From a virus (Duplodnaviria > Caudoviricetes): a stretch of 64,000 nucleotides of DNA. Below, in pieces: positions 1-32,114 of this stretch. The stretch's first letter is position 1; each line of letters opens with the position of its first letter. The stretch lies in the IMG/VR virus record IMGVR_UViG_3300037247_001786, positions 32,001 through 96,000 of that record. One strand, 5' to 3'. Position numbers and translations under genes: made by a program. The notes below the pieces were generated by a model. That model ran no database searches and was not told where the DNA came from. It worked only from the letters and a program-made list of their open reading frames with translations.

Positions 1-108
1 AACCAAGGTAGGATTCGAACCTACAACCTCTACTTTTTTGTCCAATTGTGGTTTCCCATGCTCAATTGGCTCTTACATATAGCTATCTACCATTTGATAT
101 ACTTGGTT
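1..108 (-). tRNA. tRNA-like gene with a ~38-nt hairpin insert in the anticodon loop; 3' end truncated by the window edge
   Basis: Minus strand reads AACCAAG/CTTGGTT (7-bp acceptor), TATC-AAATGGTA-GATA (D arm), GTAGG-TTCGAAT-CCTAC (T arm), and CTAT/GTAG anticodon stem enclosing ATGTAA + 38 nt + A. Removing nt 72-35 would give loop AUGUAAA (GUA, Tyr-like), but identity is uncertain. Confidence 0.6.
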
Positions 109-163
109 TTAACAGTTGAGACAAGACTTGATACTTGCGAATTCCCGTGTACTTAGGTTCAGA

Positions 164-253
164 CTTACAATACGGGACTCGAACCCGCGTTCCCTCTTTA
201 TTAGGTAATTAATCTAACTTTAAGAGGTGTACTATCCTCTATACGAATCGTAA
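164..253 (-). tRNA. tRNA-like gene with a 25-nt anticodon loop (~18 nt extra)
   Basis: Minus strand: TTACGAT/ATTGTAA acceptor, GTAT-AGAGGATA-GTAC D arm, perfect CCTCT/AGAGG anticodon stem, GCGGG-TTCGAGT-CCCGT T arm, G73, no encoded CCA. The loop TAAAGTTAGATTAATTACCTAATAA contains a TTAG/CTAA hairpin. Confidence 0.65.
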
Positions 254-284
254 TGCGTTATCTTAACGCTACTCAACTTTTTGT

Positions 285-312
285 ATCATATCATATTTAG
301 AATCACTTTCAA
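285..312 (-). promoter_or_regulatory. sigma-70-type (early) promoter for the tRNA-like genes
   Basis: TTGAAA-GTGATTctaaatatga-TATGAT, 16-nt spacer with TGn; the same motif recurs at 13047, 15147, 15194 and 50133. Confidence 0.65.
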
Positions 313-321
313 TAATAAAAA

Positions 322-1053
322 TTATTTAATTTTATTTTTTATTTTCGTAAGTTGTTCCATAGATTTTTCTGCTAAAGAATAATCAACGAATAGAGCGACA
401 TTAATATCATATAAATATTTATCTCCCTGTTCTAGAGAAATAATATCACTAAAGATAGGATTTTTATCTTTTATTTCTTTGTCTAGTATATCTTCAACTG
501 TCATCCCGGTTTCTTCTTGCTTATTATGGACATAATTTATAACAACGTCTGTATTTATAAATGATCCTTGTTTTTTCCCTATTTTTAATAGATGCTTTTG
601 AGGCTCTGGTATCGCCGCCCAGTCAGCGACATCAATAGAAGTTATAAATATATTTTCGAAAGGAAAGTCTTCAGGACTAGATCCAGGCATAATATTTTTT
701 CTTACTTTTTCTCTTAATTCTTGTTTGTAGTTATCTACGATATTTGTAGCGACTTCTTTTAAATACTCGCTTACATCCTCTACTAATAGATTTTCTTGTT
801 CTTGAGTTAATCCTTCTAAATCATCATGAAACAATGCTTTTTTGAATTTATCAAGATCTGAGTTTAAGTTAGTATCAAAATTAAAAAATGTATTTGGTTT
901 TATTTCTTTAAGTTGTCCTGTTCCAGCGGCTACTTCAAAATCATAGTCAACTGTTTGTTGATTCATTTTGGTTCGAAATGCTTCCATAATCTCAGACGAG
1001 ATAGAAGTTATAACATCTTCATCTTTTAAATATTTATAAATTTCTTTATCCAT
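322..1053 (-). CDS. hypothetical acidic protein
   Basis: 243-aa ORF with AGGA RBS; no family recognised. Confidence 0.75.
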   Translation of the reverse strand: MDKEIYKYLKDEDVITSISSEIMEAFRTKMNQQTVDYDFEVAAGTGQLKEIKPNTFFNFDTNLNSDLDKFKKALFHDDLEGLTQEQENLLVEDVSEYLKEVATNIVDNYKQELREKVRKNIMPGSSPEDFPFENIFITSIDVADWAAIPEPQKHLLKIGKKQGSFINTDVVINYVHNKQEETGMTVEDILDKEIKDKNPIFSDIISLEQGDKYLYDINVALFVDYSLAEKSMEQLTKIKNKIK

Positions 1054-1188: not shown

Positions 1189-1800
1189 TTGAGCACCTGG
1201 TACCAAAAATGTATGCCAAAAATAAAAGACGTAAAAAAACATCTTGCAGGAACTCTTGAAGAAATAAAAACATCTGACAATATAGATTCTCTATATGTTT
1301 GGGGATCATTTGTAGATAATTATGACAACTCTAATTTTAGAATTAGAGATATCGATATTATCGCCGTAACAGATTTTAACTCTGGCGATTTAACCGCTAT
1401 AGATAAAAGCATTACCACTCAAAAACTTTCAGATGAAGAGCTAGAAGATCAAGGATATAATCCAACTGCTATAAAGTTTAGTAAAGATTTTTTAAAATTA
1501 AAAAAATATAATATTGATCATTGGGTTATTTCATCTGATAAAAAACTTCTACATTGGGGACCTATTCCATCAAGCAAGGAAGAGTCAGAAGCCATAAACA
1601 AAGATGCCTCAATTCATGCATTTAATCAAACTGGTTATCGTAGAGAAAAAATAAATAAAGCGGCACAAGAGGTAAGAGATAATTGGTATGAAGAGTATCA
1701 TACTTATATGAATAAAGTTTTTGCAGATATGCCTTCAGGTTGGTATTTAAGCGGAACAGAAAATATTGATGAAATAATTGAAAAAGCTATAAAGTTTTAA
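1189..1800 (+). CDS. pol-beta-superfamily (minimal) nucleotidyltransferase
   Basis: YVWGSF...RDIDIIAV fits the hG[GS]x9-13DxD NTase motif; GAGGAG RBS before a TTG start. Confidence 0.7.
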   Translation: MSTWYQKCMPKIKDVKKHLAGTLEEIKTSDNIDSLYVWGSFVDNYDNSNFRIRDIDIIAVTDFNSGDLTAIDKSITTQKLSDEELEDQGYNPTAIKFSKDFLKLKKYNIDHWVISSDKKLLHWGPIPSSKEESEAINKDASIHAFNQTGYRREKINKAAQEVRDNWYEEYHTYMNKVFADMPSGWYLSGTENIDEIIEKAIKF

Positions 1801-2521: not shown

Positions 2522-4231
2522 TTATAACCCTTCTGTCCAAAATCCAAATTTACTAATTACGAACCAGTTACTTACTCCGTCGGAAACAATAGTTAATGAA
2601 ACACCGTCCACGCCCGCATATTTATATTTTCCAACACCTTGCCCGCTGGTGTCTATAATAGTATCAGCCCCGTCAGGCTGTAGAAATAATAGATAATTCT
2701 CAACAAGAACAAAAGAAAAATATATCCCTGGGGTTGATGCCGATGGTAAATTTATAGTGACGAAACTTCCGGCTCCCTCATTTGTATGAACGGTTCCTGA
2801 CTGGCCAACCGTTAAATCGTTTGCCGGAACTCCATCCGTAGGATGAGCGATAACGTCGCTAATAGTTTCAGTAACAAAATTATCACAACTTGGATAAGGG
2901 GAACAGATGCATGATGCCAAACAATCCTCTTGAGTTAAATGAGTAGATAAAATCTGCAAGTTCTGGTCATCTGTCAACTCATTAGAACAAGAACAAGTTC
3001 CTAAAGAAATATTTTCGATACAATACCAGGTTTCAGAACAGACGGTGATATTATCTCCACAATATTGCCATGCAATAGATCCATCATTATAAGTAACCGT
3101 TGCACACCAAGAGGTATTACCTCCTGTCTCATTGCAATCGGGAACTACAGAAACTATAAAAGGAACATCATCATTTGTGTATTGAAAAGTATCGGTTTTG
3201 CCGCATTGATGACCACCTCCCGTAACACCTGGACCTTCTCCAAGACAAGTACTAACACATCCACTCCTCCATAATACTTTATCGGAGTCTATAGGTTCGT
3301 TACAAGGGTCTCCATATGCTGATGAAAATACTATTATCTCGTCCCTTGTATCATTAGTAGTATAACTTATTGTGGCTGTAGGTATTTTTATCTCTTGACA
3401 ATCTAAATCTCTTGTTTTCGAATTCCCAATTCTAGAAATATTAAAATCAGGACCCAATACATAAAATGCATAAGCAGTCGATCTGGTTCCACGACAATTA
3501 GGGACAGTTCTTATTCCTAAAGGTAAATCAGATTCACGAATAGAAAAACAATCATGCCAGACAAAATCCGGATTCCTACCGACATTACTTCTTGTTAAGT
3601 ATAAAGACTGGTTACTATTACCATATCTTTGAATATCAGGATTAAATCTCGTCGGAGGATATGATCCTGGATATCTAGTGGTTTCATTAGTACTAACGCA
3701 TCCAGTATCATACAATACAGTTCCTGAACAATCGGTTCCATCAAAATTACCCATTACCTGTATTCTATCAGGGACCCAGTAGGTAGTGAATTCTACATAA
3801 ATATCAGTCACTCTGTCTCCAGGTGTATCGGGATCAACAATCCATTCTGGAAAACAACTAATAGAAGAAGTTTCTACAACAATTGACTCTATATCACTGA
3901 AGAAAACTTCTCCATTTATAATAGATCTAGCCTGTATTAAAATAACGCCCTCTTTACCGGCAAAAGGTATGATAGAGAATAAAGTATCTCCTGCACTGTA
4001 AATTCCAGATGCCGTTGCCGAGTTGACCCTCTGGTTTAATGAAGAATTATTAAAAGAATAGTATACTTCCGTACTTGTAGGAATAGCGTCGGTGTTTAAA
4101 ATTCTCCAAGACACTGACGAATTTTGTAGATGTGCCACTATTCCTGGAAAACTTACAAACTCTAAAAAGGGAAAATCTCCACAATTAGGTCTATCGCAAG
4201 GATTAATTAATTCTATTCTATGTATTGCCAT
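2522..4231 (-). CDS. Cys-rich multidomain putative virion protein with a C-terminal copy of the paralogous module
   Basis: Two internal repeats of the type D.I.V....gdcsgt.VLy.tGCVST, a Cys-rich stretch, and the C-terminal TNEGAG...SKFGFWT module. Confidence 0.6.
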   Translation of the reverse strand: MAIHRIELINPCDRPNCGDFPFLEFVSFPGIVAHLQNSSVSWRILNTDAIPTSTEVYYSFNNSSLNQRVNSATASGIYSAGDTLFSIIPFAGKEGVILIQARSIINGEVFFSDIESIVVETSSISCFPEWIVDPDTPGDRVTDIYVEFTTYWVPDRIQVMGNFDGTDCSGTVLYDTGCVSTNETTRYPGSYPPTRFNPDIQRYGNSNQSLYLTRSNVGRNPDFVWHDCFSIRESDLPLGIRTVPNCRGTRSTAYAFYVLGPDFNISRIGNSKTRDLDCQEIKIPTATISYTTNDTRDEIIVFSSAYGDPCNEPIDSDKVLWRSGCVSTCLGEGPGVTGGGHQCGKTDTFQYTNDDVPFIVSVVPDCNETGGNTSWCATVTYNDGSIAWQYCGDNITVCSETWYCIENISLGTCSCSNELTDDQNLQILSTHLTQEDCLASCICSPYPSCDNFVTETISDVIAHPTDGVPANDLTVGQSGTVHTNEGAGSFVTINLPSASTPGIYFSFVLVENYLLFLQPDGADTIIDTSGQGVGKYKYAGVDGVSLTIVSDGVSNWFVISKFGFWTEGL

Positions 4232-4232
4232 T

Positions 4233-4649
4233 TTATTGTCTATTTATTCCCATTAAATTATTATTACCTTGCTCTTTAATTACTTTAAAACCAAATTTTT
4301 CATAGAAATTTGTTAGAGCTTCTAAAGGCAATCCATCAAATCCCATAGGAGAAGCATTTAAATAGATATAATTAACATTTCTTTTAGAAAGCTCCTTCAT
4401 CGCTTCTTCAATTAAGGCAGTTCCATACCCTTGACCCATATTAGCAGTATTTACTTCTATATGTTCTATTTTTGCTATCCAATCATCTTCATCAATTCCA
4501 ATTTTTTCAAATTCTTCTGGAGACATATCTTCTGTAAATTCATATCTTGGAGAAGTTTCAGTTATAACGACACTTCCATAAGGAGAAGAAATAGTTACTC
4601 TATCCTCGTCGGTATTGTAAGAAAATTGTGCTATTTTATACCAGTTCAT
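4233..4649 (-). CDS. GNAT-family acetyltransferase with MNWYKIAQ leader
   Basis: Acetyl-CoA motif A IEHIEVNTANMGQGYGTALI and motif B LTNFYEKFGF. Confidence 0.8.
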   Translation of the reverse strand: MNWYKIAQFSYNTDEDRVTISSPYGSVVITETSPRYEFTEDMSPEEFEKIGIDEDDWIAKIEHIEVNTANMGQGYGTALIEEAMKELSKRNVNYIYLNASPMGFDGLPLEALTNFYEKFGFKVIKEQGNNNLMGINRQ

Positions 4650-6436
4650 GAATACCTTATTACCTTTTCCGCTTCTGGAAATTTTCGCTGTAACAATTGT
4701 TGTAAAAATTGAGGAATTTCTCTAAATCTGCTCATCCCTTCATGAGGAGACATAATAGAGATAATTTTTTCACTAGGGCTATATCTTCCTGTATATAACT
4801 TATCTAAGCCAGAATCGAGTCCCCAATTTCCTCTAGACCTATGAGTCTGATCCGTTCCAGTTTCTGGTCTTGTTTCTATCTGCCCGTTATTATAAACCCA
4901 CATTATATTAGGATTATTAATAGAATAATTCTCATTTGGTTCGTGTCCTAATGCTTTATTTTGTTCTTTATAATAAATATCATGGCCTATGCCTGTATAG
5001 AATCTTTCTTTTCCTTTTAAATCTTTAGAATCCATTACCTCTATTTGTTGTGCTATTTTATACCAGTTTTTACAAGAAGAATAACTAAAATCAAATGACG
5101 TTTGTCCTTCAGGCATATATATTAATTTTAACATATGTTCTGCAAAACTTTTTATAACAGGAGCATTTTCTCCATAAGAAGAAGCATTATCTCTTATCTC
5201 TCCTTTTAATATATTTATTAATTCCTTAAGACCAGGTTTTTCTCCACCATAGCCGTCAGATCCTTCTATGGTTGACAATAACTCTGTATCTATCCAACTC
5301 GAATGCCAACTTATATCTTCCGCATTTTTTGGACCATATTCATAAGTCATAGTTTCAAAAATTATACCCATCAATCTACCTATATCAAGATTGTTAGACC
5401 ATTCAATAAACTCATCTGATTCTGTTCCTTGTAGCCCATAATCTCCTGCTAAATAATTTTTATAATTATCTTGTTCACTTGTATATCCATTTTGTAAATC
5501 CTTCAATTGTTCGGCAATAGTACTTAAATCGCCCCCAATATCCCACTCAGAAGTAGAAGTCCCACCAAGTCTTTCAGGAGTATTTTTGCCATACTCTACC
5601 CATTCCCTTATCATATCTCTATGTTCTTCATCAGGAGTACTGTTAGAATTGCCTTGTATCTGCTCGACAATTTTCCCAGTCCCATCTGTCTCTATTGTAG
5701 CTTTAGGATTATTTTGAGGGTCCCTTAAAGAATAAATAATACTTTTTTCGCTAATAACATCTTGACAATAATCACCGACACAATGATTCATCATATTTCC
5801 TTCTGCTAACAAATCATTCTCACTTATAACTTTTTGGATAGTCCATCCTTGCCACTTCTTATCATTTTTCCATTCTGGACCAAAGACTATTAGTTCAGAT
5901 TTAGTAGGCTCGTATTCTTTTCCTGCACCTTTACCAGCCATCATTCTATGCCACTCAGCAGATGCGTCGATCGCCTGTTCTAATGAGAAAGAAGCAATAT
6001 CAGCTTGATTTTGAGACCTAGTATACCAGTCATCTATTTCCTGGATTACATTAGTGTTAGAACCATAATACCCATATGTAATAAAATCTATATAATCTTG
6101 AAAATCTTCTGGAGAAAGTTGATTTTCTGGATCCATCGAACTTTTTCTTATTTTTTTAAATTGTACTAATAACCATTTTGAAAAAGAAGAATCATATCGA
6201 TTTGCAATATTTTTTTCTGTAGGCAAATAAGGGTCTATTTGTTGTGGAGATTGGAACTGTTGAAGTTGTTGTAAGTTTAAAGATGGATTTTTTCTAAATT
6301 CATTAGTTAATATTTGTCCGAAATTAGGATCTAAAGAGCTAATATATTGCACAATATCTGGGGACGCTCCGAGGCTTTCCAAATAACCTAGCATCGCTGT
6401 CGCTTGAGCAAATATATTTTTAAGATACCAATTCAT
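4646..6436 (-). CDS. PcfJ-like domain protein; MNWYLKNIFAQ leader and an internal second NWYKIAQ module
   Basis: DLLAEGNMMNHCVGDY...IYSLRDPQNNPKATIE fits the PcfJ-like motif; KNWYKIAQQ occurs about 135 aa from the C-terminus. Confidence 0.7.
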   Translation of the reverse strand: MNWYLKNIFAQATAMLGYLESLGASPDIVQYISSLDPNFGQILTNEFRKNPSLNLQQLQQFQSPQQIDPYLPTEKNIANRYDSSFSKWLLVQFKKIRKSSMDPENQLSPEDFQDYIDFITYGYYGSNTNVIQEIDDWYTRSQNQADIASFSLEQAIDASAEWHRMMAGKGAGKEYEPTKSELIVFGPEWKNDKKWQGWTIQKVISENDLLAEGNMMNHCVGDYCQDVISEKSIIYSLRDPQNNPKATIETDGTGKIVEQIQGNSNSTPDEEHRDMIREWVEYGKNTPERLGGTSTSEWDIGGDLSTIAEQLKDLQNGYTSEQDNYKNYLAGDYGLQGTESDEFIEWSNNLDIGRLMGIIFETMTYEYGPKNAEDISWHSSWIDTELLSTIEGSDGYGGEKPGLKELINILKGEIRDNASSYGENAPVIKSFAEHMLKLIYMPEGQTSFDFSYSSCKNWYKIAQQIEVMDSKDLKGKERFYTGIGHDIYYKEQNKALGHEPNENYSINNPNIMWVYNNGQIETRPETGTDQTHRSRGNWGLDSGLDKLYTGRYSPSEKIISIMSPHEGMSRFREIPQFLQQLLQRKFPEAEKVIRYS

Positions 6437-7901: not shown

Positions 7902-8762
7902 ATGAAAGATATTATCAAAATAACATTATTAGTAGGTTTATTATCTTTATGCGGATGTGACTTATTTCAGCCAACCAAACCTAACGAACATTTGGCAAAC
8001 GATGTTACAAAAGTTACAAAAGTTATCAATATAAGTGCAGATGATATTCTCGCATCAGCTACAAAAATAGATGAGAAAGTAATAGATATCAAACAAGAAA
8101 CAAAAGTTGCTACTCCTTCAATGGCTATTATCGAAAAAAGTGCAGACGATATTTCAACTGAAAGCTCCAAATTAAAAGAGACAAGTAGGAATCTGTCTAA
8201 AGCAGGAGTAAGATTAGAGATATCTGGAAAAACAATAGATGGTTATTATAAGCGTATAGCCGAAACAGAGAAAGATAATGAAAAATTGACAAAAGAGAAT
8301 ACCAAATTAAATGAAGATATGAAATCCGGTTTAAATAAGATGCTTAAATGGATAGTAGGGGGATGCGTCATCGGAGCAGGAGCCTGTGCTGCAATGGCTT
8401 TATTTTTCGGAAATATTAAAGGTGGATTATTTGGAGCAACAACTTGCATTATTGTAATGGTTTTAGCTATTGCGGTAGGTCAATATATGATATATATAGC
8501 CATTGCAGGAATACTTGCAATAATTGCAACATTAGGAGTTTTAGGATATCAATTATTTGTTCAAAGAAGAGCTATATCAGATAACGTATGGACTCAAGAA
8601 GTAGCTAAAAAACATATGTCTTCTGACTTAAAAGAGAAAATCTATGGAGATGGTAAGAAGAAAGGAAAAGCTGGTATCATACAATCTGCGACCACTCAAA
8701 AAATAGTTAAAAATATTAAAAACAATTTACCTAGAGGATGGAAAGTCACGAAGGAGGACTAA
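7902..8762 (+). CDS. lipoprotein with coiled coil and C-terminal membrane segments (spanin-like architecture)
   Basis: Lipobox LLSLCG-C19, long heptad region, hydrophobic helices around aa 150-220. Confidence 0.5.
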   Translation: MKDIIKITLLVGLLSLCGCDLFQPTKPNEHLANDVTKVTKVINISADDILASATKIDEKVIDIKQETKVATPSMAIIEKSADDISTESSKLKETSRNLSKAGVRLEISGKTIDGYYKRIAETEKDNEKLTKENTKLNEDMKSGLNKMLKWIVGGCVIGAGACAAMALFFGNIKGGLFGATTCIIVMVLAIAVGQYMIYIAIAGILAIIATLGVLGYQLFVQRRAISDNVWTQEVAKKHMSSDLKEKIYGDGKKKGKAGIIQSATTQKIVKNIKNNLPRGWKVTKED

Positions 8763-9261
8763 TTCCTACTGACTTAACAATGTTTATTAGCCATTCTTTA
8801 TCCTTATCGGTATAGCCAAATCTTTCTTGATTAATGTCTAATGACTTAAAGATACATCCATCTGAGTGACGAGTAACAGCCGCTATCCAATCAGCTATCA
8901 TCTCAAATTTATCAATCTCACTCATATATTTATATCCATCTTTGATGTTATAGTATTGAGGATGATGAGGGTTTCTTTTATAATGCAAATTTATAGAAGG
9001 CTTAATTGATCTCAAACTTTTTATATACCCTTCTGATCCATAGGTTAATCCTTTAAGGTCAAATATCACTTTAGCGAAGGCTTTAGCTTCTGACCATCGG
9101 TATTTACTGAGATCATGAGACAACCCTCTCCTATACAGTTTCCATTTATCTTTAAGCTCTATATTATTATTAATAATATCAACGATATTTATAAGAACTT
9201 TAATTTTATGAATAGTTGTTTGGATTATATGCCAAATATATCCTGCTACAAATTTAAACAT
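8746..9261 (-). CDS. DUF5662-like / HD-type phage protein
   Basis: HDLSKY...HYKRNPHHPQY...EMIADW motifs. Confidence 0.6.
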   Translation of the reverse strand: MFKFVAGYIWHIIQTTIHKIKVLINIVDIINNNIELKDKWKLYRRGLSHDLSKYRWSEAKAFAKVIFDLKGLTYGSEGYIKSLRSIKPSINLHYKRNPHHPQYYNIKDGYKYMSEIDKFEMIADWIAAVTRHSDGCIFKSLDINQERFGYTDKDKEWLINIVKSVGISPPS

Positions 9262-30290: not shown

Positions 30291-30989
30291 ATGAGTATTA
30301 TCGAGAGTCTAACGAAAAAATGTAAATTTTGCGGTGACTATTTCAGGTCAACTAAAAAAAGAAGAACATATTGTTCAGACGGATGTTTTGATGGTTCCGT
30401 AAAAGAAAGACAGAAAAGATACAGAGAAGACAATAAGAAAGAAATTTTTAAAAGAAAAACAACCTGCAAGTATTGTAATAATAAATTTAAAATAGAAGAA
30501 CTTAAAGAAAGATGTTGCGATAGTAAAGATTGTTTAAAAGAGAAAAAAAAGGAGAAACAAAGAGTATCTTGGAAAAAGCATTATAATAAAAATATAAAAA
30601 AAACTACCAAGAAATTTAAAAAGAAAGATGCTGAGAGTAGCCGAAATTATAGGCGAACCCATACGGACGAAATTAACAAGAGAGACAGATCCCGTAAAAA
30701 AGAAAAAAGAGATTGGGTCGATAGTTTGAAAAAAAAATGCAAATGTAGTAGATGTAAAGATGATAGACACTTCTGTTTAGAGTATCATCATTTGAAGCCT
30801 GAAAATAAAAAATTTGCTATCTCGCAAGCTATAAGACAGGGATATGGCAAAGAAAGTATTTTAAAAGAAATAGAAAAATGTATTGTACTTTGCAGTAATT
30901 GTCATAGACACCTGCATTATCTAGAAAAGGAAATAGAAAATTGGAAACCATCAGAAGAATGGTTAAATAGTAAGGAGATTTTAGTATGA
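30291..30989 (+). CDS. HNH endonuclease with zinc-finger N-terminus
   Basis: CKFCG, CSDGC, CKYCN and C-terminal CSRC...LEYHH...EIEKCIVLCSNCHRHLH. Confidence 0.8.
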   Translation: MSIIESLTKKCKFCGDYFRSTKKRRTYCSDGCFDGSVKERQKRYREDNKKEIFKRKTTCKYCNNKFKIEELKERCCDSKDCLKEKKKEKQRVSWKKHYNKNIKKTTKKFKKKDAESSRNYRRTHTDEINKRDRSRKKEKRDWVDSLKKKCKCSRCKDDRHFCLEYHHLKPENKKFAISQAIRQGYGKESILKEIEKCIVLCSNCHRHLHYLEKEIENWKPSEEWLNSKEILV

Positions 30990-31691: not shown

Positions 31692-32114
31692 ATGAGGCAA
31701 GTAACTGTAATTTATAGAAATAGATCAGAGCCAACAAAAGTTTTAACAAAAAATAAACTGCAATGGTATGACCCTTTAAAAAAAGAGATGCAACATTTCG
31801 AGGGCGGTTGTCTTGAATTTGAATATATAGAAGATCAATATCTCGTCGCTATTGGATCACAGCAAAGATCAAATCAAGGAATTCATAGTACTTTTAGACT
31901 ATTGCCTAAAGCGGTTGATTTAGAGATAATATCAACTCATAAAGTATCTGATAATAAAAAGTTTTTAAAGTTTTTTGATAATTATCTTAATTATAATATG
32001 AGCGAAATAACAGCGAAGACGGGTAAAGAAAATACTATATGCTTTGTTCCAAATGACGAGTTTGAGGATTTTAGCTATCAACTAGAAAGACACGGTTTTA
32101 ATTATGAGATATAA
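31692..32114 (+). CDS. hypothetical protein
   Basis: Tightly coupled ORF. Confidence 0.7.
   Translation: MRQVTVIYRNRSEPTKVLTKNKLQWYDPLKKEMQHFEGGCLEFEYIEDQYLVAIGSQQRSNQGIHSTFRLLPKAVDLEIISTHKVSDNKKFLKFFDNYLNYNMSEITAKTGKENTICFVPNDEFEDFSYQLERHGFNYEI

Follow-up and report, generated by a model that had tools for sequence, protein, structure and literature searches.

The tRNA-like gene known here as gene B, which the first-pass annotation treated as a free-standing gene, forms, in all copies found, the inner part of a nested RNA of 166 nt, where an outer tRNA-shaped shell is built around a complete tRNA body. The nested RNA is real, selected and uncatalogued, and is a variant of the unexplained tRNA-in-tRNA class of huge phages. 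Judged from its sequence, it very probably does not read codons, and with moderate confidence gene B can be regarded as the inner module of a stable, non-decoding tRNA mimic with two elbows. The window, i.e. the whole stretch of 64,000 nucleotides that was analysed, comprises bases 32,001-96,000 of a complete virus record of 460,978 bases with direct terminal repeats. The DNA data set that matches it best is a marine sediment metagenome, from which this DNA may come.

The “pseudo-tRNAs” and “tRNA introns” of huge phages have been an unexplained remark since 2019. The nested RNA provides a small, covariation-backed model with three levels, namely the shell, the inner tRNA and an anticodon-masking hairpin, and its natural variants mark which bases matter. 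At least some such genes of huge phages are thus selected, very probably non-decoding RNAs on a reusable shell, which is nature's equivalent of the tRNA scaffold made in the laboratory. The size of 166 nt allows in vitro synthesis and direct testing.

Architecture and genomic setting of the nested RNA

On the minus strand (253-164), gene B forms a cloverleaf with a 7-bp acceptor stem that includes one G-U pair, a 4-bp D stem with the D loop AGAGGATA, a canonical T arm and G73; it scores 36.8 bits against Rfam RF00005 (cut-off 29; E 3.4e-5). The perfect 5-bp anticodon stem (CCTCT/AGAGG, with an optional sixth U-A pair) surrounds a 25-nt loop, just as first described, and the TTAG/CTAA hairpin reported within the loop is present and reaches 5 bp when a G-U pair is included (z of -2.3 for the arm alone). 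The loop measures 24-26 nt in all eight complete copies, none of which has a 7-nt loop with U33 and a purine at position 37; the D-loop GG and the T-loop UUCGA are invariant.

tRNA scanners mis-annotate such genes. ARAGORN calls gene B Phe(aaa), a call that was rejected since it is not conserved among the copies. The D loop and G73 had also been considered Arg-like, and this identity is refuted: Arg identity in bacteria depends chiefly on A20 (PMC9976931), all four bases occur at position 20 across the copies, so that the Arg reading fails, and C35 is absent in every conserved register. Scores are nearly tied among the in-genome tRNAs closest to the inner body (Asp, a Met or Lys), and its ancestry is therefore not assignable. 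The phage tRNA-Asp(GUC) (L002 7740-7811; genome 375,739-375,810) has the same D-stem sequence as gene B, and apparently carries A73 in place of the usual G73.

The ends of the inner tRNA are tied into the shell at the gene level. Gene B sits, from its first to its last base, directly after A26 of the shell, and its acceptor stem thus stands in for the outer anticodon stem. In the shell itself (Table 1), bases 278-272 are perfectly complementary to their partner strand, and the pairing probability of this outer acceptor stem is 0.77-0.98 in all eight copies. The linker consists of two bases before the D arm, the variable hairpin has two C-G pairs on purine-purine stacks, and the T stem is 100% paired among the nested copies, with one compensatory change. 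The discriminator of the shell is G, U or A, which argues against a fixed amino-acid identity, and CCA is not encoded. The inner acceptor was also considered as an outer anticodon stem displaying a TCG/TAG anticodon, and this was rejected, as these bases are the inner U8-N9-G10 and differ between copies.

Table 1. Positions of the nested RNA, its parts, its neighbours and related elements (window coordinates unless a locus is named)
Feature	Position	Strand	Support or remark
Complete nested RNA, 166 nt: outer tRNA-shaped shell around gene B	113..278	-	Covariation; single copy in genome
Outer acceptor 5' strand AGTTGAG, partner 120-114	272..278	-	98% paired, one compensatory change
Outer linker, D arm (3-5 bp; loop AAG replaces GG), A26	254..271	-	G-C to A-U in two copies
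Gene B, inner tRNA body; U1-A72, G73, canonical GG and T loop	164..253	-	Rfam; helices 3, 4, 5 and 7 of the covariation analysis
18-nt insert at inner 31/32; bases 218-214 pair with 204-200 (would-be 32-36)	205..222	-
Apical 9-nt loop ANUAAUUAM, self-complementary core UAAUUA	205..213	-	7/9 columns invariant
Would-be anticodon loop CTAATAA, masked by insert	198..204	-
Outer variable region, 25 nt, short hairpin, loop WAAGUACAC	139..163	-	8/9 loop columns invariant
Outer T arm (5 bp, 8-nt loop YAUCRAGU), acceptor 3' strand CTCAACT, discriminator	113..138	-
Sigma-70-type promoter: TTGAAA, 16 nt, extended -10 TGnTATGAT	285..312	-
Gene A, separate tRNA look-alike family, 4 nt downstream of nested RNA	1..108	-
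243-aa protein, syntenic anchor upstream of RNA array	322..1053	-	38 homologues
Sister family with 85-nt cargo	L010 5898-6039; L014 4319-4460; L018 971-1112
Sister family with 85-nt cargo	L071 4063-4202; L013 5662-5801; L019 1076-1214
Three shell members, each with its own cargo	L021 2509-2650; L081 2370-2522; L086 1321-1488
Look-alike of ~133 nt, same array	L012 6283-6416; L014 4637-4764; L020 5062-5193; L074 about 3380-3512

A whole-genome scan of both strands revealed no second such shell. Among 38 tRNA-like genes tested, an enclosing acceptor and T stem were found only for gene B and for one weak match, which is G-U-rich and borrowed from neighbouring tRNAs. No Rfam family other than the tRNA match covers the nested RNA.

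The promoter noticed in the first-pass annotation is borne out at the level of sequence: a promoter-like site lies there and its position is conserved in relatives. Promoter-like sites as such show no excess over shuffles (4 found, 6.7 expected). The end of the -10 box precedes the first base of the outer RNA by 6 nt, which places the start of the shell at the predicted +1; the same spacing recurs in ten loci, so that transcription would usually start with the shell. Three nested copies have the RNA at an internal place of the array, where 5' processing would be needed. Gene A, which occurs in relatives both with and without the nested RNA, probably lies in the same transcript. The 243-aa anchor protein has no Pfam or PHROG match, and the nested RNA is absent beside its distant homologues.

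Several other elements share this neighbourhood. In many relatives, the opposite strand directly upstream of the gene for the 243-aa protein carries a gene for a protein of 195-203 aa with a Pol-beta-type nucleotidyltransferase motif, GS..DID (window 1189-1800, plus strand); some of the 120 homologues are annotated as predicted nucleotidyltransferases. A conserved non-coding element of ~130 nt directly follows gene A (L001 9995-9860, minus strand; genome about 31,860-31,995), is also found in L010, L012, L014 and L074, and belongs to no family known to us. Between two tRNA-Gly genes lies another conserved non-coding stretch (L001 about 8660-8950; genome about 30,660-30,950), which most close relatives share and which contains nearly identical blocks, and a free-standing HNH endonuclease gene (L001 7890-8576, plus strand) adjoins tRNA-Gly(GCC).

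The phage genome is rich in tRNA genes (36 by ARAGORN; 34 Rfam matches above the cut-off), most of which lie in an array at 373-386 kb. Normal tRNAs are the majority, and enlarged anticodon loops are confined to a minority, comprising genes A and B, those at genome positions 374,206 and 382,465, and probably 372,524. Mostly normal tRNAs together with poor conservation of these genes had been named as the outcome that would speak against a designed RNA; the former was found, the latter was not in the case of gene B.

Covariation and selection among relatives

About 70 loci were collected with the 243-aa upstream protein as an anchor. Apart from the window, seven of them hold further distinct and full nested copies (L012, L014, L020, L059, L071, L074 and L076), and one (L082) holds a cut copy. 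The nested copies are 70-96% identical to each other, and the eight distinct homologues score 160-195 bits. The nested design is kept in 8/8 complete copies, and the inner tRNA was never found alone. In contigs from other marine runs the inner unit is present and the outer T arm after it has diverged (loose ends only). Four DNA runs contributed nothing but additional genomic variants.

Searches further afield detected no relative. Scans of IMG/VR for exact patterns of gene B or its conserved loops returned none, and a further IMG/VR pattern scan yielded five unrelated tRNA hits. No relative of the nested RNA was found in GTDB genomes, blastn against cultured phages gave only short T-arm or D-arm matches, and a distant phage of 548 kb with the anchor gene gave only an ordinary tRNA match.

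The whole nested structure is predicted by RNAalifold without guidance. Compensatory changes, with both sides altered, occur in 16 of 44 pairs and 97.7% of cells are paired; slid controls are 37-46% paired, and none of 500 shuffles scored as high as the real pairing, in a set of eight sequences of which four or five are close and whose relatedness inflates the shuffle control. Eight of the nine helices contain compensatory changes, inner and outer alike. Identity of the RNA to the window copy is 78-91%, compared to 39-52% at the fourfold sites of the adjacent gene, which are saturated.

These observations bear on the possibility that the RNA is a decayed pseudogene or a chance fold. The z-scores of single-sequence folding are modest (-2.4 to +0.2) and single mismatches occur in a few copies, as decay would have it; the compensatory changes, the conservation far above that of synonymous sites and the conserved promoter register stand against it. 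Decay or chance folding is largely refuted by covariation and by the synonymous-site comparison, and its probability is accordingly very small. The earlier proposal of design rather than decay is thus upheld by covariation, by purifying selection and by an insert whose position is fixed in 8/8 copies.

The inner acceptor stem reaches a probability of only 0-0.1 when the full-length RNA is folded as a single sequence. Since such folding does not favour it, this helix rests on covariation, much of it from L059, where two double changes and one replacement of G-U by A-U preserve the stem, a single base being bulged out. In the window, single-sequence folding favours an alternative helix of 8 bp, formed by the inner 3' strand with the outer variable loop. 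The alternative was rejected as the conserved fold, as it shows no compensatory change and is broken in four copies, yet it may represent a minor conformer.

The shell is not restricted to the nested RNA. Other cargos are enclosed by the same set of arms (acceptor, D arm, and a T arm whose loop has 8 nt) in eight of the collected loci (L010, L013, L014, L018, L019, L071, L021 and L081), as well as in L086, a separate IMG/VR contig with a compensated first acceptor pair (G1-C72) and D stem. At least four kinds of cargo occur in these nine loci, and in none is there a normal anticodon arm. No empty shell, i.e. an intron-less allele, was found in 17 shell loci, a small sampling that includes one IMG/VR shell match.

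One sister family combines the same shell with a branched cargo of 85 nt and does not occur in the genome of the window. Further tRNA look-alikes accompany these loci. One is conserved, is ~133 nt long and has a canonical D and T arm with an insert of ~60 nt in its anticodon arm. Another is a tRNA-shaped RNA of ~160 nt with a long AU-rich hairpin as its anticodon arm and a long variable arm (L071 4211-4372; L076 4340-4500). Possible further nested elements, in which a tRNA-like 3' module lies within a long-range stem that starts ~100 nt upstream, are located in L014 (about 4460-4625 and 4945-5085) and L018 (about 1130-1265).

The masked anticodon and the possible roles of the RNA

The insert is 17-18 nt long across the copies, and its helix is 100% paired, with compensatory changes in two of five pairs. 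The would-be positions 32-36 read C-Y-N-A-U in 8/8 copies, where N is A, G, U or C with matching changes opposite. By covariation, the insert pairs with the anticodon-like bases, and the RNA would consequently be unable to read codons. None of the six columns of the anticodon stem is invariant, versus 7/9 in the insert loop and 8/9 in the outer variable loop. The high conservation of both 9-nt loops is as expected for recognition surfaces.

A coherent scheme for the non-decoding mimic can be outlined from these features. The conserved spacing implies that a sigma-70-type promoter would start the transcript at the first base of the shell, position 278. The shell, with its acceptor, D arm and T arm, would act in the manner of an engineered tRNA scaffold, and the covariation places a whole tRNA body where its anticodon arm should be. 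The 3' end would presumably be trimmed and probably receive CCA from the phage's own enzyme, which would protect the RNA from decay. The ends of the inner tRNA being covalently tied, no charging is expected while it is nested; the inner unit may or may not be cut out by RNase P and 3' nucleases, and both forms would be non-decoding. What selection maintains is the shape and the exposed motifs, namely two elbows and two nearly invariant 9-nt loops. It fits a non-decoding RNA that the phage already encodes tRNA-Ile(GAU) and three CAU tRNAs, according to ARAGORN. The most likely use, put forward tentatively, is that of a decoy or ligand for tRNA-recognising host proteins, for which anti-phage tRNA nucleases, tRNA-modifying toxins and sensors of uncharged tRNA are examples. 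This use is favoured because the elbows and exposed loops are selected while the identity and decoding features drift.

The conserved C-Y-N-A-U counts against a non-decoding mimic, as it hints at an anticodon that was once, or still is, usable, and its sequence suggests that the anticodon-like loop derives from an anticodon loop of the Ile/Met type. Gene B may accordingly be a cryptic tRNA-Ile/Met that is processed twice: the inner unit would be freed by RNase P and 3' nucleases of the host, and a nuclease acting at 31/32 and the T4-type ligase of the phage would then produce a decoding tRNA(NAU). Removal of 18 nt at 31/32 does yield the loop CTAATAA, as had been stated, and after excision in silico ARAGORN calls Ile(aat) in five copies, Ile(gat) in one and Met(cat) in one. 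A35 and U36 of Ile identity are invariant in 8/8 copies, any of the four bases can stand at the wobble position with compensation opposite, and C4-G69, a minor Ile determinant, is present in 6/8. The phage encodes a T4-type RNA ligase (Rnl1), kinases of the AAA_33 family and an enzyme of the CCA-adding or poly(A) polymerase family.

Other features make a twice-processed tRNA unlikely. Bacterial Ile and Met identity require A73 (PMC9976931), and all eight copies have G73; of the remaining Ile determinants given in that source, U12-A23 occurs in 1/8 and C29-G41 in none, while position 37 is A, G or U and position 38 A or G. The excised loop is fully canonical in only two copies, those of the window and L076; it has 8 nt in L020, U37 in L074 and C33 in L059, and G38 is found in three copies. 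The loop of the insert is better conserved than the anticodon stem. An insert-less allele occurs in 0/8 copies, and the gap range of one IMG/VR scan excluded such alleles. The geometry is not that of a bulge-helix-bulge (BHB), and EndA (PF01974) has no match in the complete phage genome, nor do RtcB and HARP/PIN_5. An RNA ligase is frequent in tRNA-rich phages, where it serves repair, and the phage ligase is thus no proof of splicing. Ligation of cleaved tRNAs is mentioned in PMC7162821. The 31/32 register of the spliced tRNA(AAU) suggested originally gains some support from the exact pairing of the insert with positions 32-36; as a product this tRNA is doubtful at best.

Other routes for removing the insert were rejected. 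Excision at 37/38 leaves non-conserved loops, without U33 in most copies. The conserved fold is a stem, a small internal loop, a 5-bp helix and a 9-nt loop, and lacks the 3-nt bulges and 4-bp helix of a BHB intron. A self-splicing group I or II intron, the ribozyme core of which takes up hundreds of bases, is incompatible with an insert of 17-18 nt, and no Rfam intron match was obtained.

A combined possibility, of similarly low probability, sees in the family modular natural tRNA scaffolds, with a single non-canonical shell that is transcribed from +1 and can house exchangeable RNA domains. One of these would be a caged tRNA of the Ile/Met type that would act as a two-headed decoy until nucleases of host or phage and the phage ligase uncage it. 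If true, it would represent a route of tRNA splicing or activation in bacteria that needs neither EndA nor a ribozyme.

The inner unit could alternatively be the part to be discarded, as a tRNA-shaped intron or processing signal whose removal by tRNA-maturing enzymes allows the outer halves to be ligated to an RNA of 75-76 nt that displays WAAGUACAC, a route that has been proposed for introns of the Lak type. Emptied shells do measure 75-76 nt in 8/8 copies, the top half of the inner unit is canonical with 12 bp, the introns of Lak phages end in a tRNA-like unit, and a ligase is encoded by the phage of the window. Yet ARAGORN recognises no tRNA in any of the eight emptied shells, which are without U33 or a paired anticodon stem, no locus or IMG/VR shell match contains an empty shell, and the cargos of paralogous shells lack a tRNA top half. 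Moreover, U at +1, a paired leader and the absence of CCA make a poor RNase P site. Such an intron is considered distinctly unlikely.

A structural role is a further possibility: the apical loop of the insert (2+6+1) contains an invariant self-complementary hexamer, UAAUUA, through which the RNA might oligomerise by kissing loops; the alternative contact would be pairing with the second conserved loop. GOLLD and ROOL, which with phi29 pRNA are the models for this reading, are homo-oligomers (PMC12286853). The columns involved are invariant, so that no covariation is available, and no Rfam match other than tRNA was obtained. Kissing helices made of A-U pairs only are weak. Oligomerisation is thus judged to be quite improbable, and the non-decoding mimic is retained as the preferred reading.

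Comparison with known systems

No description of the nested design was found in the literature, the coverage of which omits most subscription papers. The nearest precedent is the tRNA-Thr(TGT) of the Lak megaphages, the “enigmatic” intron of which may be a tRNA gene in its own right (Devoto et al. 2019, PMC6784885, Fig. 4, Table S6). The Lak introns of the Tyr, Gly and Phe genes too have at their end a tRNA-like unit of acceptor and T arm, behind a short leader (PMC6784885, Table S6). As in the nested RNA, a huge phage carries a highly conserved, tRNA-shaped unit in the anticodon region of a tRNA. In Lak, however, the outer tRNA is canonical with an intact anticodon stem, the insert follows a leader of ~30 nt inside the loop, and alleles without the intron occur. 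The nested RNA has the inner acceptor in the position of the outer anticodon stem; its shell is marked by a T loop of 8 nt and a discriminator that varies, and its inner tRNA has an insert of its own that masks the anticodon. The nested RNA is not a Lak-type intron, because no excision restores a canonical outer tRNA (ARAGORN, 0/8 emptied shells).

The introns of archaea and eukaryotes that are defined by a BHB resemble the 18-nt insert in being short and structured, in lying in the anticodon loop and in pairing with its bases. The insert differs from them in its location 5' of the anticodon, in the lack of a 3-4-3 bulge-helix-bulge, in its bacterial-type signals and in the absence of a phage-encoded EndA. 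The Y RNAs of the YrlA type (Chen et al. 2014, PMC4201824) are likewise non-decoding, possess tRNA-like D and T loops and occur in phages, but they are circularly permuted (T, closed acceptor-like stem, D) and located near Ro60; the inner unit has the normal order of arms, the phage genome contains no match to TROVE, and no Rfam Y-RNA match was found.

The shell also resembles natural and engineered scaffolds. tmRNA is a natural analogue of a tRNA scaffold with kept arms; as an identity for the shell it was rejected, since the shell has U3-A70 and not the G3-U70 pair of alanine, and an ARAGORN search for tmRNA found none. In the engineered tRNA scaffold (PMC3753655), as in the shell, the acceptor, D and T arms are kept and a cargo replaces the anticodon stem-loop; the scaffold protects that cargo, as the shell would. 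The nested RNA differs from that construct in being natural, in belonging to a non-canonical family of shells, and in having as its cargo a second tRNA.
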